A stretch of DNA of 12,674 bases from Bacteriovoracaceae bacterium. GTDB lineage: Bacteria > Bdellovibrionota > Bacteriovoracia > Bacteriovoracales > Bacteriovoracaceae. The position numbers and the translations under genes were made by a program. The stretch's first letter is position 1. The number at the start of each line of letters is the position of its first letter. Below the pieces are notes generated by a model. The model saw nothing but the letters and a program-made list of their open reading frames with translations. It was not told where the DNA came from and did not search any database. The stretch is from NCBI GenBank assembly GCA_041586955.1, contig JBFGZE010000087.1, forward strand, positions 1-12,674, given 5' to 3'. Below, piece after piece: positions 1 through 12,674 of this stretch.

Positions 1-113
1 CTACAATGCGGCAAAGGCCTACGGGCTTTGAAGCGTTGGAGTTTACTCTCTCGCAGAGTGAACGAGAAGCGTAAGCGCCGAGAGATCGAATCCATTATTT
101 CGAAGAACTGTAG
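1..113 (+). other. Structured non-coding element (possible ncRNA or tRNA-associated repeat), probably truncated by the window edge
   Basis: Stacked hairpins. CAATGC(4-9)/GCGTTG(33-38) encloses CAAA(12-15)/TTTG(27-30) and GCC-TACG-GGC (17-26, UNCG tetraloop). GTTTACTCT(41-49)/AGAGTGAAC(55-63). GC-GTAA-GC(69-76). TCGAA(86-90)/TTCGA(99-103). CTACA(1-5)/TGTAG(109-113). G-U wobbles occur on the + strand. More GC-rich than the other intergenic regions. Confidence 0.4.
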
Positions 114-128
114 ATTATCAAAAATGAG

Positions 129-212
129 TGGTGGCCCGGGCGAGACTTGAACTCGCACACCCGAAGATACTTGATTTTGAATCAAGCGCGTCTACCATTC
201 CGCCACCGGGCC
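129..212 (-). tRNA. tRNA-Leu (anticodon CAA), CCA end encoded
   Basis: Reverse complement is GGCCCGGTGGCGGAATGGTAGACGCGCTTGATTCAAAATCAAGTATCTTCGGGTGTGCGAGTTCAAGTCTCGCCCGGGCCACCA. It has a 7-bp acceptor stem GGCCCGG/CCGGGCC, D-loop GG, anticodon arm CTTGA-TTCAAAA-TCAAG, a long variable arm, T-loop GTTCAAG, discriminator A and CCA. Confidence 0.97.
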
Positions 213-229
213 GTTTAGAACAGGATGGC

Positions 230-258
230 ATCTTATTAAAATCCTGGTAAACTGTAAA
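230..258 (-). promoter_or_regulatory. sigma70-type promoter for tRNA-Leu
   Basis: Minus strand TTTACA(258-253)-17 nt-TAAGAT(235-230), followed by GC-rich GCCATCC (discriminator-like), 17 nt upstream of the mature tRNA 5' end. Confidence 0.7.
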
Positions 259-289
259 GTACTACAAAATCACTTTCAAAGGTTGTGCT

Positions 290-580
290 ATGCGTATAGT
301 ATTGTTTATTTTCACCTGGTTATCACTTGGTATTCAAGCTGACGAAGCTCCCTCGAGCATCAAGGATGTTTCTGACAAGGTTATTAAAAAGAAGGGTTAT
401 TGTTCTCCTTTAGATAAATTGATGGGAGGTAAGAATTGCAAGAAGAGCGATAGCGCTAAACTTGAGGGTGAAATTCCGCCTAAGCTTAAAGAAATAGGTA
501 AAAAGATTGGTAAAAGGAATGGTTATTGTTCTCCTTTAGAGAAAGCTGCAGGTACCAAGAATTGTAAAAAAGAAGATTAA
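290..580 (+). CDS. Small secreted Lys-rich protein with two GYCSPL[DE]K-x4-KNCKK repeats
   Basis: 96 aa ORF. N-terminal signal-peptide-like segment MRIVLFIFTWLSLGIQA|D. AAGG upstream. Internal repeat with a 42-aa period. Stop codon overlaps the convergent gene (TTAA 577-580). Confidence 0.8.
   Translation: MRIVLFIFTWLSLGIQADEAPSSIKDVSDKVIKKKGYCSPLDKLMGGKNCKKSDSAKLEGEIPPKLKEIGKKIGKRNGYCSPLEKAAGTKNCKKED
395..540 (+). repeat. Intragenic direct repeat, exact 20-mer GGTTATTGTTCTCCTTTAGA twice (395-414, 521-540)
   Basis: The two copies are identical and 126 nt apart. AAGAATTG at 431-438 and 557-564 has the same 126-nt period. Both are in frame within the 290-580 ORF. Confidence 0.95.
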
Positions 581-1539
581 TTTTTAAGATGCTCCAAAGA
601 ATTACGCACGTTATATTGGTAAAACCCTTTGGGTAATAAGGCTTTTAATTCACTCGCATCAATGATGCAGGAATGCTTTATATAGTCGATGAGATACTCT
701 GGAATTTCCTTCCAAAAAAACTTTGCTGCTTTAAGAGATTGCTCCATTGCTAGGCTGGGTAATGGAATACTATTTAATTTAAGATGCTTACGTGCTTCTT
801 TAATAGAGATCACATCTTCTGGCGCAACATTATAAACGCCCAAAGGAATATTTTCTAAAGAAAATTGGATGACTTTTGCCATATCGGCTTCATGAATAAA
901 TTGAAACATGGGATTAAAATCCATACAGACCGGTAACCAATTTCCTCTGAGGTAGCGACTCATGGCATTTTGGATAGTGGGGCCAATAATGGAGCATGGC
1001 CTTAAGATGACCATTTCTCTACTTGTTTGATTTTTCCACATCCAGCTGCAGGTCATCTGATCAAGCTCTACAACATCTCTTAACTCGGGGTATTTAATGG
1101 AAGCTCTTAAAGGATAATCCTCGGTAATAAAAACGGGGTTATCTGAGAGGGCTCCATAGACGTGATAGGTACTTAGGAAAATTATTTTTTTGATATCAAA
1201 CTTTTCGGCCAGGTCTAAAATGCGTTTGGTTCCAATGAGGTTAAGATCGAGCCTACGAGAGAGGGAGTTTGAGCTTTCCAGGTTGGCGTGGGAAATACGG
1301 CCAAGATGGATGATTGTGTCGAATGAGTGTTCTCGAAAGAGGCGTTCGAAGTCTCCTCGAGTATAGCGGAGTTTAATAAAGTGTACTCGGGTAGAGGGAA
1401 GCTTGGTATTAAGGGGACGATTATCAATACCGATAATTTTACAGAGGGGATTACCTTTAATGATCCTCTTTGCGGTCAGTTGGGCCAAGCCGCCGGCCAT
1501 GCCAATGATTAATATTTTATTTGCTTGGTATTTGGCCAT
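577..1539 (-). CDS. NAD-dependent epimerase/dehydratase-family (extended SDR) protein, atypical
   Basis: Rossmann start ILIIGMAGGLA, IIGID, DTIIHLG, N-x-x-GT, IIFLSTYHVYG, LRPCSIIGP, FQFIHEAD, GVYNVA. Start directly abuts the acyltransferase stop. Confidence 0.88.
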   Translation of the reverse strand: MAKYQANKILIIGMAGGLAQLTAKRIIKGNPLCKIIGIDNRPLNTKLPSTRVHFIKLRYTRGDFERLFREHSFDTIIHLGRISHANLESSNSLSRRLDLNLIGTKRILDLAEKFDIKKIIFLSTYHVYGALSDNPVFITEDYPLRASIKYPELRDVVELDQMTCSWMWKNQTSREMVILRPCSIIGPTIQNAMSRYLRGNWLPVCMDFNPMFQFIHEADMAKVIQFSLENIPLGVYNVAPEDVISIKEARKHLKLNSIPLPSLAMEQSLKAAKFFWKEIPEYLIDYIKHSCIIDASELKALLPKGFYQYNVRNSLEHLKN

Positions 1540-2391
1540 TTATTGTTTCTCTTGATTGGTGTTGGCAAAAAAGGGTCGTCTTTTTTTGAGTCCTTTTTGT
1601 GTCATTTGTGAAATTTGATTTTTGATTTGATTAATATATTGATCGATAACTTCATCTGTAGCATCCTCCGAAACTTCCTCAGGCAGGCTAAATTCTTGAC
1701 CAATATGAATATCAATGGGCGAGGGCAATGGAAAGTAATTTAAGGAAAGTGGCAGGGCCGGAAGTTTTAGCATTTTTGCCAGTGATTTCGCCTGGTAGAC
1801 CCAGGGGAAAGTTTCTTCTGCCCCTATGACGGCAATGGGTAAGATGGGGGTTTTCGTTTGCAAGGCAATTCGAAAAAAACCTCGAGTAAAGTTTTGTAAT
1901 TGGTAATAATCAGATGTGCTTTTGGCAACACCTTTAACGCCCTCGGGGAAGACCAGAACGGATTCTCCTCTCTTGAGGAGATTGAGGCAATTTTGTCTAT
2001 CTCCTAATACTGCTCCACCTTCGGCCGCCCAGGTATTAAGGAAGGGGAGTTTTGTAAAGAAACGTTCGACCATTGCCCTTAAAATTCGCGGCGGTTTAAT
2101 TTCGGTGGCAAAAGCGGTAGCGATCAGCATACCATCAATGGCAATTTGTCCGGTGTGGTTAGAGATGACGACATAGGGTCTGTCCTTAACATTTTCTTTG
2201 CCAAATAAGCGAACTTTAAAATAGTTTTTATAAATGGGGTAAACAATCTCCATATTCTTACGAGCATTTTTTAAATGAAGGCCCCAGGCATCCTCACCAC
2301 TAGGATACTTTTTTTGAAAAAACCTGAATGTCTTATCAAAAAAGTCAGACTGACGTTTTGTGATAAGTATATTTTTTAAAATTTTAAGCAT
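1540..2391 (-). CDS. Lysophospholipid/acylglycerol acyltransferase (LPLAT, MGAT/DGAT2-like subgroup)
   Basis: Motifs VVISNHTGQIAIDG, VLVFPEG, F-x-RGFFRIA, TPILPIAVIGAEE, PLP...IHIGQ, typical of the PlsC-fold MGAT-like acyltransferases. Confidence 0.9.
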   Translation of the reverse strand: MLKILKNILITKRQSDFFDKTFRFFQKKYPSGEDAWGLHLKNARKNMEIVYPIYKNYFKVRLFGKENVKDRPYVVISNHTGQIAIDGMLIATAFATEIKPPRILRAMVERFFTKLPFLNTWAAEGGAVLGDRQNCLNLLKRGESVLVFPEGVKGVAKSTSDYYQLQNFTRGFFRIALQTKTPILPIAVIGAEETFPWVYQAKSLAKMLKLPALPLSLNYFPLPSPIDIHIGQEFSLPEEVSEDATDEVIDQYINQIKNQISQMTQKGLKKRRPFFANTNQEKQ

Positions 2392-2448
2392 AGGTGACCG
2401 TTCGTGTAGTAAATAATCATTGTCTTCATTTTAACAAATTCTAAATTC

Positions 2449-2477
2449 TTCACAACAAAGGTCTTAATAGTTATAAT
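2449..2477 (+). promoter_or_regulatory. sigma70-type promoter for the 2504-2815 gene
   Basis: TTCACA(2449-2454)-17 nt-TATAAT(2472-2477). A possible divergent extended -10 (TGTTAAAAT, minus strand 2436-2428) serves the acyltransferase. Confidence 0.7.
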
Positions 2478-2503
2478 TTGTATTGAATATTAAGGAGTCA
2501 AAT

Positions 2504-2815
2504 ATGACAGATAAAGGCCAAGACTGGAAGGACAGATTTCACGATATTTTTAATATCTGTCAAGAGGAAGTCAAAAAAACGACTGAAATTGGAAAAAGGA
2601 TGTTATCGGCTTCAAAGGCCAAAGGTCAATTAAACGAAGCTTATTCGGAATTAGGATCTTTGGCATTCTCTGCACTGAATAAGGGGGAGCTAACTAGCGA
2701 TGACCCTCGCGTTGCTGAATTAATGACCAAGATTAAGAATTATGAAGCGGATTTAGAAAATATTGAAAAGGAAGTGAATACCATTCGCTTTTCAGAGGAT
2801 AGTAACGACTCATAA
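2504..2815 (+). CDS. Hypothetical small alpha-helical/coiled-coil protein
   Basis: The ORF track starts at TTG 2483, but AAGGAG (2492-2497) precedes ATG 2504, which is the better start (103 aa). Charged helical pattern ...LNEAYSELGSLAF...LMTKIKNYEADLENIEKEVN. Confidence 0.75.
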   Translation: MTDKGQDWKDRFHDIFNICQEEVKKTTEIGKRMLSASKAKGQLNEAYSELGSLAFSALNKGELTSDDPRVAELMTKIKNYEADLENIEKEVNTIRFSEDSNDS

Positions 2816-3466
2816 AAGGCGAAGGAAGTGGTTGACGATTCCGCTTTCTAACTGTGGAACACCTGTCTTCTTTTCTGCAGATACCGTAAAGATTTGTTGG
2901 GCCATGGTGACTTCTTCTAAAATCTTTGGCATCTGACTTTTAAGCTTCGCTCTATCTTTTTGAGTTTTTAATTTATCTAATTTATTAAATGCGATACTAA
3001 TATGACCATCCCATTTTTTTAGTATTTTTAGAAAATGGGTGTCTGCGGTTTGCAATGGGTGGCGAGCATCTTGGACATTGATAAGGTGGATATTAGTGGA
3101 GGCCTGTCCAAAAAATATTTGCATTAATTCATCCCAATTTCTGGCCATCTCTTTTGAAATTTCAGCATGGCCGTAACCTGGGAGATCAAAGAGAAATAAC
3201 TCTTTTTCTGTTTCAATCGGGCGTCCATTCTCTTCTAAAGCGATATTAAAAATATTAATTTCTCTTGTGCGTCCTGGTGTTTTTGAGGTTCTGGCAGTTT
3301 TTCGGCCGAAAAGAGTATTGATAAGGCTGGACTTACCGACATTTGAACGACCAACAAAGGCGACACCTATGGCCTTGGGGTTTTCTTGAAACCAAGTCAT
3401 TAATTGCTCGGGAGAGCTAAAGCCATAGGCAAATTGGGTATTACCCTTTGATAGTTTTAGTTCCAT
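2810..3466 (-). CDS. engB: Ribosome biogenesis GTP-binding protein YihA/EngB (YsxC)
   Basis: G1 VAFVGRSNVGKSSLIN, G2 SKTPGRT, G3 DLPGYG, DARH, G4 NKLD, G5 SAEK. SD AGGAG at 3477-3473. Confidence 0.95.
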   Translation of the reverse strand: MELKLSKGNTQFAYGFSSPEQLMTWFQENPKAIGVAFVGRSNVGKSSLINTLFGRKTARTSKTPGRTREINIFNIALEENGRPIETEKELFLFDLPGYGHAEISKEMARNWDELMQIFFGQASTNIHLINVQDARHPLQTADTHFLKILKKWDGHISIAFNKLDKLKTQKDRAKLKSQMPKILEEVTMAQQIFTVSAEKKTGVPQLESGIVNHFLRLL

Positions 3467-3554
3467 GTGGTTCTCCTTGAGTCTTAATGGTTGATATCAA
3501 TACCATTTTTAACTTAGAATTCAATATAAGATCCTAAAAACAGGTGATTTTTAT

Positions 3555-3571
3555 CTGGCACAGGGCCTGAA
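3555..3571 (+). promoter_or_regulatory. Candidate sigma54 (-24/-12) promoter upstream of the enhancer-binding protein gene
   Basis: CTGGCACAGGGCCTGAA. Perfect TGGCAC -24 element, with GG-N10-GA in place of the canonical GG-N10-GC. Confidence 0.45.
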
Positions 3572-3613
3572 ATGAGAAGGAGGAAAGAACCTTTTTCTTC
3601 ACTTGGGGGCCTT

Positions 3614-4936
3614 ATGGTGCAAAAAGTCGCGATCCTTTCTAATTTATCAATTAAAGAAAATGGCCTGGGCCTTGGTGATCGTCTTGAGCTAACCCCTCTC
3701 AATGCTCGTAAAAGGACCCTTAAATTGATGAAAACTCATTATAAATTTGTGATTCGTCAGGGGGTTGAATACCAGCAAAAAGGTGAAGAAATTTGGTTAC
3801 CCGGCCTAAAGGAGGAGGAGGGGGAATTCTCCCTGGATTTATGGGGAGAGGGCAAGGATCATGATAAAAGATATTTATTGAGGGCCCTTAGCTCTAACTA
3901 CTTTAAGGTCAACGAGCAGTGGTGTGCTGAGGTCTTTCTTCAGCGGTACAGTACTATTTATTTGGGTTTTAATCGTATTGAGACTAAAAATAATTTATCC
4001 CATAGCAAAAAATCAGATGATGATGAAATAGATAAAAGGGAATTGTTTTTTGAAAAGTGGGGCCAATCTAATTTACCCCTCCTATTAAAAGGAGAGACAG
4101 GGAGTGGCAAGTCCCATATGGCCAAATCGATTGCCAATAAACTTTTCCCTGAAAAAAAATTTATTCATATTAATATTTCTTCTTTTTCCCCCTCATTGTT
4201 GGAGTCAGAATTATTTGGCCATGAAAAGGGGGCCTTTACGGGGGCGCATCAGAATAAATTGGGAGCTTTACGAGAGTCTCATTATGGGGTTCTCTATCTC
4301 GATGAAATTGACTCTTTGTCATTGGAGTTACAAACTAAATTATTATTATTTTTTGATAATAATGAGGTTCGACCAGTAGGTGGGGCGCGAAGTTACCCAG
4401 TCCAGAATAAATTAATTATCTCCACGGGCCGGTCACTTGATGACTTGTTAAAGGCCGGAAAAATAAGAAGCGATTTTTATTTTCGTCTTCACTCAGGCCT
4501 AGAATTTGAATTAGGGCCATTACGTCAGCGGCTAAATTCTATTCAAGAGATATTAGATTTATTTATGGTTCAACATAAGGTTCATTTTTCTCGTCAATTA
4601 ACCCAATTCATCCTCAATTATTCATGGCCTGGGAATTATCGTCAATTAATGGGATATTTAAAGAAAAAGGCGCTATTGGAAGGTCCTGGATATTTAGACG
4701 TGTCTTTAATTGATGAGAATTTACTCAATATCAAAAAACTCAATTCTATGGGTGAGTTAGAAGTGTTTCGACCCTTAGAAGAGGTCAAAAATGATTATAT
4801 AAAGCGTGCTTATATAAGCTTTGATCAGAAAGTTGATATGGTCTCTAATGTTCTTAAAATCTCCCCCTATAAAATTAAAAATGCATTAGAGGATTTTAAA
4901 GGTAAGGAAAGGGAAGCATTTAAAAAAGTTATTTAG
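3614..4936 (+). CDS. Sigma54-dependent transcriptional activator (bEBP, AAA+) with FHA-like N-terminus and Fis-type HTH
   Basis: Walker A GETGSGKS, ESELFGHEKGAFTGA (intact GAFTGA), Walker B LYLDEID, LQTKLL, RSDFYFRL, YSWPGNYRQL, C-terminal LEEVKNDYIKRA...VLKIS helix pattern. The ORF is open from ATG 3572. ATG 3614 (GGGGG at 3605-3609) is preferred, but the start is uncertain. Confidence 0.9.
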   Translation: MVQKVAILSNLSIKENGLGLGDRLELTPLNARKRTLKLMKTHYKFVIRQGVEYQQKGEEIWLPGLKEEEGEFSLDLWGEGKDHDKRYLLRALSSNYFKVNEQWCAEVFLQRYSTIYLGFNRIETKNNLSHSKKSDDDEIDKRELFFEKWGQSNLPLLLKGETGSGKSHMAKSIANKLFPEKKFIHINISSFSPSLLESELFGHEKGAFTGAHQNKLGALRESHYGVLYLDEIDSLSLELQTKLLLFFDNNEVRPVGGARSYPVQNKLIISTGRSLDDLLKAGKIRSDFYFRLHSGLEFELGPLRQRLNSIQEILDLFMVQHKVHFSRQLTQFILNYSWPGNYRQLMGYLKKKALLEGPGYLDVSLIDENLLNIKKLNSMGELEVFRPLEEVKNDYIKRAYISFDQKVDMVSNVLKISPYKIKNALEDFKGKEREAFKKVI

Positions 4937-5817
4937 GCGCCGAGCATAGAGTGAATATTGATCTCATCAATTTCTCCCTTGATTTCAAGCTCTTTAAGAA
5001 GTGCGTTTAATTCTACCTTTATTTTATCTTTGATGATTTGTTTTCCCTCTTGGGATTCGACTGGAAACTCGATGCTCATCGTTTCAATAGTGGAATGCAG
5101 TTTATTTGTAATTAAATAAGGGTTCTCCCATAAATAAGCGCGAATATACTTATTGGAGGCCTTAACTGTAAAATCTAAGTTGAGCACTTTCATCCCTCCG
5201 GTATTCACCAGATGAACGGGGAAAATAAAATTGCGTACCAGAAACTCTTTGTCAGTGCGACGAAAATAAGCAGGTCGTCGACTTGTCCCATCAGCGTCTT
5301 TAACTTTTTCTACCATTTCTGCAGCAGGTGAACGGGCCGCCTTTTCCGCAATTTTTTTACTATTTTTATAAACGGTGATCCCCGTTAAGGAACCCACTGT
5401 TGAGAGTGTTACAAAAGCGACGAGGGCCTTTGGTTTGAGAGTGAAAACCCAATGAGTACATTTTTTTAAAGGAGGGGCAAAGATCGCAAAGATGGCCAGA
5501 ACAATCTTTTTTAAGATTGAGGGGGTTAGTCGAAAGTCTTTCGCCTCAACCAAAGAGTTGAGGGCAGAGTCTTTGGTTTTGTGCCAGTTTTTAGTTGATT
5601 TTTTTTTCAAGTTAATAAGGTCTGATTGCGCTTTATTCTTTTTTTCGACTAGACCTTTACCAAGTAGGACCTTTTTCTCCGCAAAATTTTCCTGAAAATC
5701 AACAACGGACTCTAGGATCTTTTTTGGGGTAATCTTTTTGGTTGCCGAAGATGCCTGCTCGCCTACATTTGATAAAATGCGGTTGATACCATCTTCAATT
5801 TTCATAAACTTCTTCAA
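4933..5817 (-). CDS. FliL-like membrane protein with long basic N-terminal extension
   Basis: Hydrophobic segment LVAFVTLSTVGSLTGITVY, then a C-terminal domain ending EGKQIIKDKIKVELNALLKELEIKGEIDEINIHSM that resembles the FliL C-terminus. SD GGAGG at 5826-5822 before TTG. Upstream sigma28-like promoter. Confidence 0.65.
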   Translation of the reverse strand: MKKFMKIEDGINRILSNVGEQASSATKKITPKKILESVVDFQENFAEKKVLLGKGLVEKKNKAQSDLINLKKKSTKNWHKTKDSALNSLVEAKDFRLTPSILKKIVLAIFAIFAPPLKKCTHWVFTLKPKALVAFVTLSTVGSLTGITVYKNSKKIAEKAARSPAAEMVEKVKDADGTSRRPAYFRRTDKEFLVRNFIFPVHLVNTGGMKVLNLDFTVKASNKYIRAYLWENPYLITNKLHSTIETMSIEFPVESQEGKQIIKDKIKVELNALLKELEIKGEIDEINIHSMLGA

Positions 5818-5846
5818 AAAACCTCCAAAGGGCCTTATTCAAAGAT

Positions 5847-5874
5847 TTATCGGTTATTTGATTAAAATACTTTA
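5847..5874 (-). promoter_or_regulatory. sigma28 (FliA/SigD)-type promoter
   Basis: Minus strand TAAA(5874-5871)-16 nt-ACCGATAA(5854-5847), against consensus TAAA-N15/16-GCCGATAA. Lies about 30 nt upstream of the FliL-like start. Confidence 0.7.
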
Positions 5875-6035
5875 TTATAGGCCATAATGTTTTTCTAGTT
5901 GAGCGAAACGCTCGGCCAAGCCGTTAAAATAAGTAGATTTTTCCCCTTTTTACTTAAACTCTCACTTTCCTTCATCCAACGCAGATTTTGTTCGAATAGC
6001 CCAGTAGTTGGGGCATCGGGCCTCGCGGAGGGATT

Positions 6036-6689
6036 ATGCAGAATTCTAAGTATTTGATTATACTGTCTGTTCTTTTATTAAGCAGTTGCGCCGCCTTTTT
6101 AAAGAAAAGGACCTTTATCGATGAAATGGATCGTACCTCGGAGGGACTTTTTGTTCCAGGCCAAGATTTTAATGTCACGCCAGGAGACCGATCTGATTCG
6201 GCCTACCGTTCTCGTGAGGAAATCTTAAAGAGGACACCGGCATCCTTTGAGAGAGAACAGCTTGAAAACAGTAAATCTCTCAACCACGAATTAGTGATGA
6301 AAGAGCGCAATTTAAATCAAGAGGAGTATGAGCAATACGCTCATGTTTCACCATATCTCGAGTCTACTTCTGAAAAGATATATTTTCTAAGCTTATCATC
6401 AGAGGAAAAGCGAGACTATGTCGACTCAATGCGATTAGAAGAGTATCACGAAAGGGTCGGCCGTGATGGCCGTAGTCTTGCCAGTTTGGATCTTATCAAA
6501 AGGAGAGACCGGGATATTCAGGTAGGGATGACCAAAGATGATGTTCGCCGCCAATGGGGCCCGGCCTTTCGTATTGACGTGGCAGGTGACCCTATTCGCG
6601 AAAATGAGCGCTGGTCTTTTCAACAAAATGGCAGGATGCGCTATGTGTTTTTTGAGCAAGGCGTCGTCCAGGGGTGGAGCCTTGAATAA
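6036..6689 (+). CDS. Lipoprotein with C-terminal SmpA/OmlA (BamE)-like domain
   Basis: Lipobox LLSS-C after a hydrophobic signal. C-terminal IQVGMTKDDVRRQWGP...ERWSF...YVFFEQGVVQGW matches the GMT-x-x-[DE]V...G-P / W-x-Y / F-x-x-G-x-V pattern. SD GGAGG at 6027-6031. Confidence 0.75.
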   Translation: MQNSKYLIILSVLLLSSCAAFLKKRTFIDEMDRTSEGLFVPGQDFNVTPGDRSDSAYRSREEILKRTPASFEREQLENSKSLNHELVMKERNLNQEEYEQYAHVSPYLESTSEKIYFLSLSSEEKRDYVDSMRLEEYHERVGRDGRSLASLDLIKRRDRDIQVGMTKDDVRRQWGPAFRIDVAGDPIRENERWSFQQNGRMRYVFFEQGVVQGWSLE

Positions 6690-6786
6690 AATACTAGCTT
6701 TTTCCCCTCTCAACATTGTTAATCCCTTCTTTTTTTACTATCCTCGCTGTTAAACTTTTATCCCAAACCTGTTTGAGGGGTGTCTT

Positions 6787-7791
6787 TTGAGCGATTTATT
6801 AGATCAGTTTACCTTAGATTTTGAACGGCCAGTTCGAGCTTTAGAAAACCAAATTAAAGATTTAAAGGAAGCCTCTTCAAGGCCAGAGCTTGATATTTCT
6901 CGTGAGATTAAGGCCTTGGAGAAAAAGGTTAGTAATCTTATTAAAGAAATTTATGGCAATCTTACCCCTTGGGAAAGAGTTCAATTGTCACGCCATCCAA
7001 GCCGTCCTCATACAGTTGATTATATCAAAAATATTTTTACTGACTTTCATGAAGTTTGTGGTGATCGCAAATTTGCAAATGACCCCGCTTTAATTACCGG
7101 CTTTGCTTATCTTGGAGATCAAAAAGTTTGTGTTGTTGGTATTGAAAAAGGTCGCAAGACTAAAGAAAAGGTCAAGCATAACTTTGGTATGCCAAGACCA
7201 GAGGGTTATCGTAAGGCCCTCAGGGTCATGAAAACGGCAAGCCAATTTAATATTCCTATCATTACTTTGATTGATACTCCAGGTGCCTATCCAGGGATTG
7301 GCGCTGAAGAGAGAGGTCAGGCCTGCGCCATTGCTGATAATATCGCAGAAATGTTTGACCTCAATGGCCCAATCATCTCAGTTGTTGTTGGAGAAGGCGG
7401 TTCCGGAGGAGCGCTTGGGGTTGCTATTGCAGATAAAGTGCTAATGATGGAGTACTCCATTTATTCAGTCATCTCCCCTGAGTCTTGTGCCTCCATTTTA
7501 TGGGCCGATCCAAAGAAAGCTGAAACAGCTGCGAACTCCCTTCAATTGGGCCCTCAAAAGGCCCTTGAATTGCAAGTGATCGATGGTGTTATTGCTGAAC
7601 CTGCAGGTGGTGCCCATAAAGATGCCGGGGAAGCATTTGCTCTTGTTCAAAAAGCTTTGGAAAAAGAGGTTAAAGCTTTGAGTAAGATTTCTAAAAAGCG
7701 TTTGAAAGAAAATCGATTTCAGAAATTTAGACAGATGGGAAATCAAACGGTTGAGGGCAACCTCGATTGGCAATCACTGTTATTATCCTGA
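6787..7791 (+). CDS. accA: Acetyl-CoA carboxylase carboxyltransferase alpha subunit
   Basis: LDFERP, LTPWERVQLSRHPSRP, NFGMPRPEGYRKALR, IDTPGAYPGIGAEERGQ, GEGGSGGAL, YSVISPESCASILW, EPAGGAH. TTG start with SD GAGGGG. Confidence 0.98.
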   Translation: MSDLLDQFTLDFERPVRALENQIKDLKEASSRPELDISREIKALEKKVSNLIKEIYGNLTPWERVQLSRHPSRPHTVDYIKNIFTDFHEVCGDRKFANDPALITGFAYLGDQKVCVVGIEKGRKTKEKVKHNFGMPRPEGYRKALRVMKTASQFNIPIITLIDTPGAYPGIGAEERGQACAIADNIAEMFDLNGPIISVVVGEGGSGGALGVAIADKVLMMEYSIYSVISPESCASILWADPKKAETAANSLQLGPQKALELQVIDGVIAEPAGGAHKDAGEAFALVQKALEKEVKALSKISKKRLKENRFQKFRQMGNQTVEGNLDWQSLLLS

Positions 7792-7800
7792 GAGGAATTT

Positions 7801-8676
7801 ATGACTATTTCATCTATGACAGGCTTTGGTAAAGGGGAAGCCTCCGGTGAGGAGTACTCTGTAAATGTAGAAATTAAGAGTGTTAATCATCGTTTCAAAG
7901 ATATCCGCTTTAAAATGTCTTCCATTTTTAATGCTGTCGAAGTTGAGTTAAGAAAGAAATTATCCCATAAGTTTTGCCGCGGCTCTTTTGATGTTTTTAT
8001 CAATTTTAAACGGGCGGAAAATAACAATAAATTTGATGATATTGACCTCAATAAGGTGCAAGGCCTTATTAATACCCTCAAGCCAACTTTTGATGAGCAG
8101 GGGGTACAAATGACAATAAACCCCACAGATTTTTGCCGTTCTGAGTTTTTGACGGACAAGGATCTTTCCAAAGATCCGCTCCTTTTGGAATTACTTATTA
8201 CCGCTTTTGATCAGGCGGTGATTAGCCTTGGAGAGTCCCGCTCACAAGAAGGAGAGAAGTTAAAAGCGGTATTAGTGGATCATAAAGGTCAGTATTTAAA
8301 ACATTTTAAAATCATTGAAGAAAAAGCCGATGAGTTCCAAAAGCATGTGAAAGAGAGATTGACGAAGAAATTTAAAGAAATGATTTCGGAAATCAAAATT
8401 GATGAGCCCCGCTATATGCAAGAGGTGGTTTATTATTTAGAGAAAATGGATGTGCAGGAAGAAATCAACCGCATTAAAGTTCACCTCGCCAAACTCGATC
8501 AGCTTTTATTAAAAGGTGGTGAAACGGGGCGGCAAATGGACTTTTTGGTTCAAGAACTCAACCGGGAAACCAATACGATTGGCTCAAAAAGTAATATGGA
8601 AGAAGTTTCAGAGTCAGTAATCCAAATGAAGGTTCATTTGGAGAAAATTCGGGAACAAGGTTTAAATATTGAATGA
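7801..8676 (+). CDS. yicC: YicC/YloC family endoribonuclease
   Basis: SMTGFG N-terminus, EIKSVNHRF, DVQEEINR, GRQMDFLVQELNRETNTIGSK, LEKIREQGLNIE C-terminus. Confidence 0.96.
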   Translation: MTISSMTGFGKGEASGEEYSVNVEIKSVNHRFKDIRFKMSSIFNAVEVELRKKLSHKFCRGSFDVFINFKRAENNNKFDDIDLNKVQGLINTLKPTFDEQGVQMTINPTDFCRSEFLTDKDLSKDPLLLELLITAFDQAVISLGESRSQEGEKLKAVLVDHKGQYLKHFKIIEEKADEFQKHVKERLTKKFKEMISEIKIDEPRYMQEVVYYLEKMDVQEEINRIKVHLAKLDQLLLKGGETGRQMDFLVQELNRETNTIGSKSNMEEVSESVIQMKVHLEKIREQGLNIE

Positions 8677-9251
8677 TGAATACTGAAAAAAAAGGCAAAA
8701 TTATTGTTATTGTCGCCCCCTCGGGCACAGGTAAGTCGACTCTTATTAAGAGACTCAAAGAGGAATTTCGCTCACTTCATTGGTCAGTCTCTTTTACCAC
8801 TAGACCGCAAAGGGAAGGTGAAGTCGATGGGAAGCATTATTTTTTTATTTCTGAAGAAGAGTTTTTAAGAAAAAGAGACCAAGATGCTTTTGTCGAGTGG
8901 GCCAATGTTCATGGCAATTATTATGGCACCTCAAAGGGTTTTGTCCTGAGTAAAGTTAACCATGGCCATTCAGTTTTATTCGATCTTGATGTACAGGGGA
9001 CTGATTCGTTTAAAAAGTTTTTTGGCGATGATGCCCAAGCGATTTTTATTGCAGCACCGTCTTTAGAAGAGTTGGAGCGACGGCTACGTAATCGTGGCAC
9101 AGAATCGGAAGAAGTGATAGAGTTACGATTGAAGAATGCCCGGGAAGAAATGAAAAGACGGGATGATTACGATTATTGTGTGGTTAATGACGATTTGGAC
9201 CGCGCTTATGAAGATTTAAGAAGGGTCTTTAAAGAAATTTTGGGGGAATAA
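8673..9251 (+). CDS. gmk: Guanylate kinase
   Basis: APSGTGKST P-loop, SVSFTTRPQREGEVDGKHYFF, EWANVHGNYYGT, DLDVQG, LERRLRNRGTE, YDYCVVNDDL. ATGA overlap with the yicC stop (start may be 8676). Confidence 0.98.
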   Translation: MMNTEKKGKIIVIVAPSGTGKSTLIKRLKEEFRSLHWSVSFTTRPQREGEVDGKHYFFISEEEFLRKRDQDAFVEWANVHGNYYGTSKGFVLSKVNHGHSVLFDLDVQGTDSFKKFFGDDAQAIFIAAPSLEELERRLRNRGTESEEVIELRLKNAREEMKRRDDYDYCVVNDDLDRAYEDLRRVFKEILGE

Positions 9252-9252
9252 T

Positions 9253-11445
9253 TTGTTTCGCTCGTTGGATTTTTCACATGAACGAGATATTACGCTCGAC
9301 GATTTAGTTCGGAGAGTGGAAGCTTATTACCCAGATGCTGATTTTGTCTTATTAAAAAAGGCCTATCTTTTTGCACAAAAGGCCCATGAAGGTCAAAAGA
9401 GAAGTTCCGGTGAGGACTATTTTATTCACCCCTTAAATGTCTCTGCAACATTGATTAAGTTGCGCATGGACATTGAAAGTATTGTGGCAGGACTCCTTCA
9501 TGATGTTGTTGAAGATTGTAATATTTCTCCGACCGATCTAGAAAAAGAATTCAATACTGATGTTGCCCAAATTGTCGTTGGGTTGACCAAAATTTCTAAA
9601 ATTAAATTTAAAACTAAAGAAGAATCCCAAGCGGAAAACTTTCGTAAAATGGTTGTCGCCATGGCGAAAGATATTCGTGTGATTATCGTTAAGTTAGCGG
9701 ATCGCATGCATAATATGCGGACATTACAATATGTCTCAGAAGAGAAGCAGAAAAAAATAGCTCAAGAGACTCTCGATATTTATGTCCCCCTGGCAAGTCG
9801 TCTAGGAATTAATTCTGTTAAGGGGGAGCTAGAAGACCTTTGTTTAAGGTTTCTTCATCCCGATATTTATTATCGTTTGGCCGAAAAAGTCGCCATGAAA
9901 AAGACTGACCGTGATGGCTATATCCGCAATGTGATTGAAATTATTCAAGAGAAATTGTCGGAATATAATGTCAAGGCGGAGACAAAAGGACGATCTAAAC
10001 ATTTCTATTCAATTTATAAAAAAATGAAAGCGCGCGGTGTTGATTTTGAACAAATTCAAGATGTCCTGGCCTTTCGTATTATTCTTAATAATATCACTGA
10101 ATGCTATAAGGCATTGGGAATTATGCACTCTTCTTTTAAGCCCATTCCTGGGCGCTTTAAAGACTTTATTGCGATTCCTAAGGTTAATGGTTATCAATCC
10201 CTTCACACGATGGTGATTGGGCCCCAGGCAGAGAGGATCGAAATTCAAATTCGTACCAGTGATATGGATGAGGTCGCGGAAACAGGTGTCGCCGCCCACT
10301 GGAAATATAAGGAAGGTATCGCTAGCGGTAGTGCTAAGTTGGACTGGATTGATCAATTATTAGAATTCAATCAGAACGTTAAAAATAATTATGAATTTAT
10401 GGATGTTGTCAAAAACGACCTCGATGCAGGTGGTATTTTTGTCTTTACACCAAAAGGTGATGTTCGTGAATTGCGCTATGGGGCCACTCCCTTAGATCTC
10501 GCCTATGCTGTCCATACAGAAGTAGGGGCGCGTTGTGTGGGGGCCAAAGTTAATGGCCGAATGGTTTCGTTACGACATACACTTAAATCTGGCGATACCG
10601 TCGATATCCTGACCTCAAAGACTCAAACCCCATCCAAAGATTGGCTTAGCATTGTTAAGTCATCTCGTGCCAAAACTAAGATTAAGCAGTTTTTATTAAA
10701 AGTTGAGCGCGAAAATAACAAAGTCCTTGGCAAAGACATATTGGAAAAAACGTGCCGTATTTTTGGTACTTCCCTCAAAGCTCTCGCCAAGAAAGGTGAT
10801 TTGGAATTCCTCGTTAAGGAATTTCATTTGTCCAATGAGGATGACCTTTATATTCGAGTTGGTTCCGGTAAATTAAAACCTAAAGAAGTTATTCAAAAAT
10901 GCCCTTCTGTTAAAAACGTAGAAGAGAATACGGTCCCTGAAGAACATTTAACTGAAATAGAATCCTATACGAATAAGTTAACTCGTACTGTACGCAAAAA
11001 GGCGAATAAAGATAATGCGGTTATTGTTGATGGTATGGACGATTTAATGGTTCGCTTGGCCCGTTGTTGTAATCCCATTCCTGGTGACCCCATTATCGGC
11101 TACGTTACTCGTGGCCGGGGGATTACTGTTCATACTGGTCGGTGCCAACGTATGGATGAGGGCGATATGGGGCGTACTATTCATGTCGAATGGAATAATG
11201 AGTTTAGTTTTAAACATCCAGTAAATGTTCGTGTTATTACCCACGATCGACCGGGAATCTTATCCAATATTTCTAAAAGTATTACCAATATCGGCGTTAA
11301 TATTAGGAGCGCTTTGGCCAAATCTCTGCCTGATCGCAAGGGGAGCTTTATTTTTGAAATTGAAGTGAAGGATTATTCTGAGCTACTCAAGACCATTTCT
11401 ATTATTGAAGGCCATGAGGAAGTGATCTCAGTCACAAGGGTATAG
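9253..11445 (+). CDS. rel: Long RelA/SpoT homolog, bifunctional (p)ppGpp synthetase/hydrolase (Rel)
   Basis: HD hydrolase domain intact (HEGQKRSSGE, HP, LLHDVVED, KLADRMHN). Synthetase GRSKHFYSI, RFKD (RxKD), YQSLHT, EIQIRT. TGS FVFTPKGD. ZFD CCNPIPGD. ACT DRPGIL. TTG start 1 nt after the gmk stop. Confidence 0.97.
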   Translation: MFRSLDFSHERDITLDDLVRRVEAYYPDADFVLLKKAYLFAQKAHEGQKRSSGEDYFIHPLNVSATLIKLRMDIESIVAGLLHDVVEDCNISPTDLEKEFNTDVAQIVVGLTKISKIKFKTKEESQAENFRKMVVAMAKDIRVIIVKLADRMHNMRTLQYVSEEKQKKIAQETLDIYVPLASRLGINSVKGELEDLCLRFLHPDIYYRLAEKVAMKKTDRDGYIRNVIEIIQEKLSEYNVKAETKGRSKHFYSIYKKMKARGVDFEQIQDVLAFRIILNNITECYKALGIMHSSFKPIPGRFKDFIAIPKVNGYQSLHTMVIGPQAERIEIQIRTSDMDEVAETGVAAHWKYKEGIASGSAKLDWIDQLLEFNQNVKNNYEFMDVVKNDLDAGGIFVFTPKGDVRELRYGATPLDLAYAVHTEVGARCVGAKVNGRMVSLRHTLKSGDTVDILTSKTQTPSKDWLSIVKSSRAKTKIKQFLLKVERENNKVLGKDILEKTCRIFGTSLKALAKKGDLEFLVKEFHLSNEDDLYIRVGSGKLKPKEVIQKCPSVKNVEENTVPEEHLTEIESYTNKLTRTVRKKANKDNAVIVDGMDDLMVRLARCCNPIPGDPIIGYVTRGRGITVHTGRCQRMDEGDMGRTIHVEWNNEFSFKHPVNVRVITHDRPGILSNISKSITNIGVNIRSALAKSLPDRKGSFIFEIEVKDYSELLKTISIIEGHEEVISVTRV

Positions 11446-11508
11446 CACTTTGCGGCGTGACTCCTGACCTAAAAACTTTCTACTGTATGCCTTAATTAGG
11501 AAAAAATT

Positions 11509-12630
11509 ATGGCCGTGCAAGTTGCAACTCACCAATTATATAAAGCATTTCAAAAGATCGGACAGGTCTTGGAAAAGCGTGCCAGCGATATCTTAACAAG
11601 TCTTGTTTGTTTAAAGGCCTGTAAAGATGAGCAAAAATTGGTGCTGATGGCCACCGATTATGAGAATACAATTAACCTTAATATACCAGCGTATATTGAG
11701 AGCGATTGGGAGGGTGCTCTAGAGGGGCATGAATTTTTTCACTTGGTAAGAGAAATTGACTATGAATCGATTTCCTTAGATCTTATAGATAATAAAAACA
11801 TTCTCATTACAAGTGATGGCCTTAGTTGCGAAATGCCTTTAATTCCCCATGATCATATTCAGGCCTTGAATTTAGAAAAAATAGAAGGCGATTCGTTTGA
11901 CTCAGGTGATCTTCTTAATTTATTAGAAAAGGTATCCTTTGCTGTAGGTGACCAGGCCTTTCAGATTAATTTATCTGGAGTTTATGTTAGACCTTACCAT
12001 GGTAAGCTTAATGCTATTGCCACTAATGGCTATTTGGTCGCGTGGAATGAGGTTGGCCTTGGCCAGACTTCGTGGGATGATAATTTTCCTCCCGTGCTTA
12101 TTCCTGGGAAGTCTGTCGGCATTTTATTGAAAATCCTTAAGGCGGATAAACCTCAATTTAAATTTAAGGTGCAAAATAATTATTTGTTATTGGAATTAGA
12201 TAATGTTCTTTTAAAGATTCGCTTAATTGACCGCGAGTATGTCAATATTGATAGTGTTTATCCACGTCAATTTTCCAGTGAAATATTAATTGATAAACAA
12301 AAATTGATTTCCGTTTTACGCCGTATCAGTCTTTTTTCCGGTGACCGTTCCCGCTCGGTAGCAATCCAACTAAAAGATGATCAATTAAATATTACTTCGC
12401 TTGATAGTCAGGCATCTCGTGCTCAGGAGTCGATCGCTCTTAAACGGCCGGCCAAAGGAGCACTCGTTGAACTAAGAGTTAATTCTTTATTGCTTTTAGA
12501 TTCTCTTTCTCGAATTGAAGATGCTGAGTGTAAAATATCTTATGACAATGTCATGTCACCATTTTTAATTAGCTCAAAGAATGAAGATTATAGAGAGAAA
12601 TATCTAATGACCCCTCTTCGATCACGTTAG
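11509..12630 (+). CDS. Divergent DNA polymerase III beta sliding clamp (DnaN) homolog
   Basis: 373 aa, a full three-domain clamp length. Colinear DnaN motifs: LMATDYE, KVSFAV...LSGVY, AIATNG, VLIPGK, IRLID, VLRRISLFS, LNITS, AQESI, VN...LLDSL, C-terminal YLMTPLR. SD-like AGGA at 11498-11501. Confidence 0.88.
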   Translation: MAVQVATHQLYKAFQKIGQVLEKRASDILTSLVCLKACKDEQKLVLMATDYENTINLNIPAYIESDWEGALEGHEFFHLVREIDYESISLDLIDNKNILITSDGLSCEMPLIPHDHIQALNLEKIEGDSFDSGDLLNLLEKVSFAVGDQAFQINLSGVYVRPYHGKLNAIATNGYLVAWNEVGLGQTSWDDNFPPVLIPGKSVGILLKILKADKPQFKFKVQNNYLLLELDNVLLKIRLIDREYVNIDSVYPRQFSSEILIDKQKLISVLRRISLFSGDRSRSVAIQLKDDQLNITSLDSQASRAQESIALKRPAKGALVELRVNSLLLLDSLSRIEDAECKISYDNVMSPFLISSKNEDYREKYLMTPLRSR

Positions 12631-12674
12631 AAGAAATCGAGAGTTTCAAAGTCGTCGTAATTCCATAAAAGAAG
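12627..12674 (-). CDS. Probable 3' end of a convergent gene entering from the right edge (...LLLWNYDDFETLDFF*)
   Basis: A minus-strand frame is open from the window edge to TAA at 12629-12627. It overlaps the clamp stop in the same way as the other convergent pairs here. Only 16 codons are visible. Confidence 0.4.
   Translation of the reverse strand, partial: LLLWNYDDFETLDFF

Follow-up and report, generated by a model that had tools for sequence, protein, structure and literature searches.

Why should a bacterium that possesses a canonical dnaN gene carry a second, strongly divergent β clamp gene directly behind rel? The question is raised by a stretch of 12,674 nucleotides (nt), positions 1 to 12,674 on the forward strand of contig JBFGZE010000087.1, which was analysed as a whole and is called the window below. 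It comes from Bacteriovoracaceae bacterium GCA_041586955.1, a metagenome bin of 194 contigs (88.45% complete, 2.13% contamination) from a marine metagenome study, and the host lies near organisms named Halobacteriovorax or Bacteriovoracaceae. The gene, termed clamp2 (protein P0001), is an intact open reading frame (ORF) at 11509–12630 on the plus strand; it starts with ATG and encodes a three-domain β sliding clamp of 373 amino acids (aa). Its sequence suggests a real, intact, lineage-specific accessory clamp that is functional and has an altered partner specificity, a reading that we judge to stand about evenly between right and wrong. What makes clamp2 unusual is that it is an orphan, alone in a housekeeping operon, with a rewritten client pocket, although the features of the ring persist.

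All three Pfam domains of clamp2 scored above their gathering thresholds (PF00712, 49.2 bits; PF02767, 47.8 bits; PF02768, 64.2 bits). The protein also passed the cut-off of the NCBIfam equivalog TIGR00663, scoring 158.6 bits against a required 137.65, as compared with 276.8 for the resident DnaN. The 373 codons were open throughout, in DNA of 37% G + C content (GC), and all three domains aligned end to end with few insertions or deletions. ORF and Pfam analysis thus confirmed the original prediction of a full-length DnaN-fold gene that lies 63 nt past rel on the same strand, with no dnaA, recF, gyrB, phage or integrase gene beside it; Pfam searches revealed no such gene elsewhere in the 12.7-kb window either. 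The Rel protein encoded immediately upstream was 58–77% identical to the Rel of 23 family genomes, and rel is a probable operon partner of clamp2. At the other end, the TAG stop of clamp2 (12628–12630) overlaps the TAA stop of a convergent DUF218 gene (12627–12629, minus strand). The codon-usage score of clamp2 fell at the 53rd percentile of the 1318 long ORFs in the genome, with GC (0.374) at the 22nd percentile and GC at third codon positions (GC3, 0.319) at the 16th. This native codon usage fits the settled chromosomal gene that had been proposed, and indicates either that its arrival is old or that the donor was of similar composition.

A whole-genome search with PF02768 and PF00712 found exactly two clamp ORFs in the assembly, clamp2 and a canonical dnaN on contig C80. 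The claim that clamp2 is a second, very divergent clamp therefore stands, and clamp2 is not the only dnaN in the genome. The resident gene is a 377-aa ORF (C80:14047–15180, minus strand; locus L006), followed by recF, gyrB and gyrA. The replicative synteny belongs to this copy; clamp2 lies instead between rel and DUF218. A single dnaA was found on contig C92, ending 437 nt before the contig end, and C80 breaks off 33 nt upstream of dnaN. No overlap joins these two contig ends; dnaA–dnaN adjacency in the host genome is likely. The resident dnaN was 67% identical to the dnaN of three relatives (G003, G009 and G023), which also gave the top similarity for its recF and gyrB; G009 and G023 were the two best Rel matches too. 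The GC of C80 (0.369) was about one standard deviation (sd) from the all-contig mean of 0.390 (sd 0.020). The similarity to relatives and the contig GC indicate that C80 is native rather than mis-binned. The resident dnaN itself had the lowest GC3 of the 1318 long ORFs (0.233), a GC of 0.317 (0.4th percentile) and a codon-usage score at the 99th percentile. Over 360 residues, clamp2 was 24% identical to the resident DnaN. The canonical clamps compared were 34–67% identical to the resident protein, 38–67% within the family and 34–38% in three further phylum families, so that the divergence of clamp2 exceeds the range of the whole phylum.

The partner-binding pocket of clamp2 was compared with that of E. 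coli K-12 DnaN. In the part of the published description used here (PMC11139829), subsite I comprises R152, L155, T172, G174, H175, R176, L177, P242, R246, V247, V360 and M362, positions that are occupied in clamp2, in the same order, by Q, L, T, G, Y, L, V, V, S, V, L and T. Subsite II comprises H175, N320, Y323, V344, M362, P363, M364 and R365 (same part of PMC11139829), corresponding in order to Y, N, L, M, T, P, L and R. Clamp2 has the E. coli residue at 7 of the 18 pocket positions, as compared with 13 of 18 in the resident DnaN. At M362 the alignment is ambiguous: this residue pairs either with T368 of clamp2 or with M367, in which case T368 becomes a one-residue insertion. Eight conserved pocket or pocket-adjacent sites were then scored (152, 173, 175, 176, 242, 244, 323 and 362). 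Clamp2 departed from the consensus at all eight (R152Q, D173N, H175Y, R176L, P242V, Y244I, Y323L and M362T or the insertion) and its best database match, P0011, at seven; the next highest score was five, and 59 of the 111 sequences showed no departure at all. The columns of D173N, H175Y and R176L are 95%, 71% and 95% conserved respectively. The cleft of clamp2 is still hydrophobic, and has lost three arginines (152, 176 and 246) together with H175, P242, Y244, Y323 and M362. The surroundings of subsite I are described as positively charged, and may steer the acidic flanks of client motifs (PMC11139829, same part). Of 49 columns with at least 70% conservation, clamp2 keeps 25; 110 of its best database matches keep 84% on average, with a minimum of 47%.

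Some of these changes were also seen outside clamp2. The dnaN of G004 (locus L019) and the database proteins P0012 and P0017, a subclade of the host family's clamps, carry N173, Y175 and T or M at 176, with the rest of the pocket kept. In G004, a 94% complete genome, this is the single clamp match, and it is linked to recF and gyrB. These three changes are therefore compatible with service as the sole replicative clamp in the family. The pocket states of G004, P0012 and P0017 would imply that clamp clients have co-evolved in that lineage.

Features on which the ring depends were retained. An AlphaFold2 model of clamp2, built from an alignment of 111 sequences, had a mean predicted local distance difference test score (pLDDT) of 93.5 and a predicted template modelling score (pTM) of 0.91. 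When compared by Foldseek with solved bacterial β clamps, the model gave template modelling (TM) scores of 0.84–0.91 and root-mean-square deviations of 2.2–3.4 Å. The six channel-helix segments contain 10 lysines plus arginines and five aspartates plus glutamates, a net charge of +5, as compared with an average of +6.6 (sd 2.3) in 71 other clamps; this charge is a sequence proxy rather than an electrostatic calculation. The E. coli dimer-interface residues I272 and L273, mutation of which yields a monomeric clamp according to the part of PMC11139829 used here, align with L275 and F276 of clamp2, so that the hydrophobic character is kept. Clamp2 also keeps the C-terminal P-x-R and the length of a canonical DnaN.

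Counterparts of clamp2 were sought at increasing distance. With clamp2 as the query, 38 of 40 relatives gave one match each, all at 21–27% identity; the 19 of these loci that were inspected were recF/gyrB-linked dnaN genes. The other two relatives, which are incomplete (66% and 75% complete), gave no match at all. Apart from clamp2 itself, which formed a cluster of one member on one contig, a word-indexed search of 5.8 billion clusters gave no match above 23% identity. An exhaustive HMMER search of 1.84 billion representatives recovered 12,667 clamps at E ≤ 0.001; only clamp2 itself fell below 1e-30, the best other match scored 117 bits, and identities did not exceed 28%. Phage records (n = 11) were at most 26% identical to clamp2, the 12 plasmid records listed reached about 24% and all 25 were below 60%, and no relative of clamp2 was found in IMG/VR. 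The nearest ESM Atlas clusters were clamp clusters; of their few members that have a record, more belong to Uroviricota than to any other phylum, a lead only. A phage- or plasmid-borne clamp was rejected as an explanation: there are no mobile-element genes nearby, no flanking repeats of note and no adjacent tRNA, and no close relative among phages, plasmids or IMG/VR.

Extra clamps do occur in the phylum. A PF02768 scan of 301 phylum genomes found 12 with two or more matches, and 10 of the 11 other than the host were examined (G214 was left out). The second match was a weak hit within the same ORF in five and a fragment in one, and four genomes (G163, G191, G228 and G270) had separate full-length clamp ORFs. 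Identity of these extra clamps to clamp2 was 20–26%. They have the canonical (M/L)PMR ending, and (A/S)TDG(H/K)RL is preserved wherever a pattern search found the motif, that is, in all except G191_C41. They were 29–31% identical to the dnaN of the host's family (G163:C35, G191:C41, G270:C134 and G228:C10/C58/C239); contamination or mixed strains may account for some of them, which sit on very short contigs. In all collections searched, clamp2 is an orphan, single-lineage gene. The suggestion that it might be a life-cycle clamp of predatory Bdellovibrionota was not borne out, since a gene found in no searched relative cannot be a general feature of predators.

The best database match, P0011, is a singleton on a Joint Genome Institute (JGI) metagenome contig of 18,877 bp. 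It shares with clamp2 N173, Y175, a hydrophobic residue at 176, loss of R152, aliphatic residues at 242 and 244, and loss of M362. P0011 and clamp2 share only 27% identity, and the N-terminal domain of P0011 is below Pfam recognition. Their shared pocket argues for a selected condition rather than random decay. P0011 joined clamp2 in a 71-row tree, a join flagged as a meeting of long branches. A profile search for more members of the group added none above 119 bits, and with P0011 as the query none of the 301 phylum genomes gave a match at E ≤ 1e-45.

The origin of clamp2 was examined by phylogenetic analysis. In free trees, clamp2 fell outside the family clade of canonical clamps (support 99 and 100/99) and joined another long branch. 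A tree in which clamp2 was held within the family clade was 26 log-likelihood units above the quick free tree, with an approximately unbiased test probability (p-AU) of 0.889; holding it as sister to the resident dnaN gave a log-likelihood 0.68 lower, with a p-AU of 0.499, so that neither placement was rejected. Six of the 50 best matches of clamp2 belonged to the family clade, to which a shared AT-rich composition could contribute. These trees would fit either a duplication followed by extreme acceleration or a transfer from a donor that has not been sampled.

The position of the gene was compared across relatives. At 11 of the 23 rel loci from the family, convergent DUF218-ridA-maeB comes after yicC-gmk-rel, mostly within a few tens of nucleotides; the remaining 12 offered only 1.5 kb past rel, or other DNA. 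A further 160 rel loci were collected from metagenomes and species-representative genomes, some records being present in both, so that not all are independent; the closest Rel C-terminal half among them was 73% identical. Convergent DUF218 lay downstream in 108 of these, other DNA in 42, and 10 were too short. The rel–DUF218 gap in the 108 was ≤ 53 nt in 55 and 291–2698 nt in 53. No clamp was found in any of the 183 rel loci (23 + 160), the 160 having been searched by tblastn with both clamps, nor did a profile of 111 clamps detect one among 91 gap ORFs. Nine of 12 gap genes examined had no Pfam family. The cargo in relatives includes signal-peptide proteins ending GGYKF, often one or two, a C92 amidase and M17 aminopeptidases (for example L096:5160–6949, L212:5150–7202 and L104:5146–6782). 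We conclude that the rel/DUF218 junction is a variable spot in the family, at which clamp2 is this lineage's cargo (about 11446–12626). Because relatives have rel abutting DUF218, or other cargo in between, clamp2 is a lineage-specific, single-gene insertion of ∼1.18 kb. No flanking direct or inverted repeats of note were detected around it.

The integrity of the locus was checked against neighbouring contigs and contigs from other samples. The contig ends 44 nt past the clamp2 gene and the break lies inside its 3′ end; the last 141 nt of the window (12534–12674) are an exact overlap with the first 141 nt of contig C56. These ends recur in no further contig of the bin, and a graph branch from strain variation is one possibility for the break. 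Parts of rel and clamp2 were also present, with no difference from the window, on short contigs of low depth in three more samples of this marine study. One (X3 record 17, 11367–11559) spans rel, the spacer and the start of clamp2, and another, from a different sample (X2 record 10, 12540–12674 and beyond), spans the end of clamp2 into DUF218. The sole variant in clamp2 was a synonymous 11644 C>T, at a depth of about 2.7. No contig that skips clamp2 was found in the four runs, all from one study and one of them possibly the source of the assembly; with low-depth contigs this is weak evidence.

Taken together, these observations suggest how clamp2 might work. It would be transcribed as the last gene of a yicC-gmk-rel operon, co-transcription with rel being expected because a plus-strand scan of the 63-nt spacer revealed no promoter-like or terminator-like site. 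The protein would be loaded on DNA as a ring, and would serve other clients than the resident DnaN does, or a narrower range of them. Several findings weigh against a functional accessory clamp. Clamp2 has lost 24 of the 49 conserved columns, and its terminal branch measured 1.83 changes per site in the 71-row tree and 4.4–4.6 in 39-row trees, against a median near 0.8. Relaxed constraint could also account for both the long branch and the disappearance of half of the conserved columns. Moreover, no candidate partner is linked to the clamp2 gene. A second DnaE-type polymerase (987-aa ORF) adjoins a Y-family ImuB-like gene (404-aa ORF) at C11:14242–16853, a pair that looks like a mutasome cassette of the imuB-dnaE2 type, and a second DnaE-type match was found in at least six of 30 family relatives. 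A tie between clamp2 and this cassette was rejected, as the five relatives with a second DnaE that were also searched with clamp2 have no counterpart.

The same losses could mean that clamp2 is a relic or neutral passenger, a duplicated or transferred clamp that has drifted far under relaxed constraint and is heading to loss, an explanation we regard as unlikely. Restriction to one lineage, the very long branch, the conserved columns lost (near-invariant pocket residues among them) and residence at a junction with varied cargo in relatives are all what a passenger would show. The gene nevertheless retains an open frame with an ATG behind AGGA, its domains align end to end with few indels, and unconstrained drift to 25% identity should have produced stops and frameshifts. 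A confident fold, the channel charge and interface hydrophobics, and native codon usage speak against decay as well, and pocket changes common to the independent orphan P0011 suggest a selected state. That the gene is an artefact, through an assembly chimera or a mis-binned contaminant contig, is extremely improbable. The bin is fragmented into 194 contigs and this one stops just past clamp2, but both the rel and the DUF218 junction lie inside the one contig, contig C56 continues the family synteny DUF218, ridA, maeB across the 141-nt overlap, the short contigs of other samples bridge both junctions without differences, and the composition of clamp2 is native.

If clamp2 is functional, its role need not be an altered partner choice. 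It could be an inhibitor-insensitive spare clamp, either a target duplication like that of GriR/MypR or a copy immune to a pocket-plugging toxin or phage protein; we consider this distinctly unlikely. A second DnaN is documented as a self-resistance gene in the griselimycin and mycoplanecin clusters, in the part of PMC10817943 used here, and such genes have been used for genome mining, according to the part of 10.1101/2023.12.14.571759 used here; the changes in clamp2 are concentrated in the pocket used by such ligands and by all known partners. There are no biosynthetic genes in the 12.7-kb window or the 12 kb downstream, however, and the non-ribosomal peptide synthetase (NRPS) condensation domain PF00668 had 0 matches in the 88%-complete genome. 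Clamp2 and four neighbouring ORFs matched 0 families in PADLOC, so there is no defence-system match. A clamp that has to stand in for the replicative one should also still contact Pol III alpha and the clamp loader, whereas the pocket of clamp2 departs from that of E. coli at 11 of 18 residues. Alternatively, clamp2 might act through the resident clamp, by forming DnaN heterodimers, one of the options proposed at the outset, or by titrating the clamp loader, and so damp or re-time replication, perhaps with Rel in starvation. The adjacency to rel, with probable co-transcription, and the retained interface hydrophobics are compatible with such a regulator; its absence from all searched relatives, which share the life style and the rel operon, makes it very unlikely in our view.

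A more far-reaching form of the altered-specificity reading is that clamp2 and P0011 are the first members of a class of 'orthogonal' β clamps, in which a cleft rewired by replacement of the arginine rim, H175, P242, Y244 and M362 would leave the universal QLxLF-type motif unread and a private partner would be tethered to DNA instead. This is an improbable proposal. If true, orthogonal clamps would constitute a second, insulated clamp–client channel in a bacterium, here wired to a stringent-response operon.

Compared with known systems, clamp2 resembles canonical DnaN in length, three-domain fold, positive channel, hydrophobic interface, P-x-R and scores above curated cut-offs. It differs in being unlinked to dnaA, recF or gyrB, in its rewritten pocket and in its restriction to a single lineage. 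With GriR/MypR it shares the arrangement of a second, divergent dnaN beside a housekeeping copy (PMC10817943; 10.1101/2023.12.14.571759). In the parts of these reports used here, however, those genes lie inside biosynthetic clusters, near transposases, in actinomycetes, another phylum, whereas neither a cluster nor mobile genes occur in the roughly 25 kb around clamp2. Streptomyces DnaN2, to which clamp2 is likened in genomic arrangement, is likewise described as a chromosomal extra clamp of unknown role beside the replicative one; in S. lividans it is weakly expressed, with a maximum of 5.7 as compared with 606.6 reads per kilobase per million (RPKM) in the part of PMC8373060 used here. Clamp2, by contrast, is without any close relative. 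Clamp2 matches the phage clamp family PHROG 947 (phrog_947) at 169 bits, but the resident DnaN matches it better, at 253 bits, known phage clamps are no closer to clamp2 than cellular ones, and the canonical pocket is intact in two of the three phage clamps inspected.

Given GriR/MypR and Streptomyces DnaN2, a second clamp is not new in kind. An intact, well-folding clamp with a rewritten pocket beside a normal one amounts to a natural experiment on the re-specification of a hub. If functional, clamp2 could reveal a new clamp client or a natural insensitivity to pocket-targeting inhibitors. The sole canonical clamps in the family with N173, Y175 and a non-arginine residue at 176 bear on the same question of re-specification. 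The weight of the case is limited, since it concerns one gene in one uncultured lineage.

Features of the rel–clamp2–DUF218 region of the window, with positions counted from the first nucleotide of the window.
Feature	Position	Strand	Remarks
rel	9253–11445	+	Bifunctional (p)ppGpp synthetase/hydrolase; Pfam HD_4, RelA_SpoT, TGS, RelA_AH_RIS, ACT_4
Spacer, 63 nt	11446–11508	+	Left end of the lineage-specific insertion; read from the sequence
AGGA ribosome-binding site	11498–11501	+	7 nt ahead of the clamp2 ATG
clamp2 domain I	11509–11850	+	Residues 1–114; PF00712
clamp2 domain II	11908–12240	+	Residues 134–244; PF02767
clamp2 subsite-I motif ATNGYLV	12019–12039	+	Residues 171–177; consensus ATDGHRL
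clamp2 domain III	12253–12609	+	Residues 249–367; PF02768
clamp2 altered C-terminal pocket strand YLMTPLRSR	12601–12627	+	Canonical ...(I/V)MP(M/L)(R/K)L; from alignments
DUF218 gene, 3′ end, convergent	12627–12674	-	Right end of the insertion

Elsewhere in the window, Pfam identified accA, yicC, gmk, a sigma-54 activator, an EngB-like GTPase, an acyltransferase and an epimerase. The only tRNA is at 129–212, 11 kb from clamp2. The 12 kb downstream, reached via C56, carry DUF218, ridA, maeB, a symporter, a LysR regulator, a protease, a hydrolase and a GNAT protein. The sigma-54 activator (3572–4936, plus strand) is a 454-aa AAA+ protein whose first 160 residues have no Pfam family and for which a C-terminal helix-turn-helix (HTH) was not reported. 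Three ORFs on the plus strand, at 6036–6689, 290–580 and 2483–2815 (217, 96 and 110 aa respectively), had no Pfam family above threshold and no PADLOC match. A 294-aa ORF on the minus strand (4933–5817) showed a sub-threshold FliL match in its C-terminal part.

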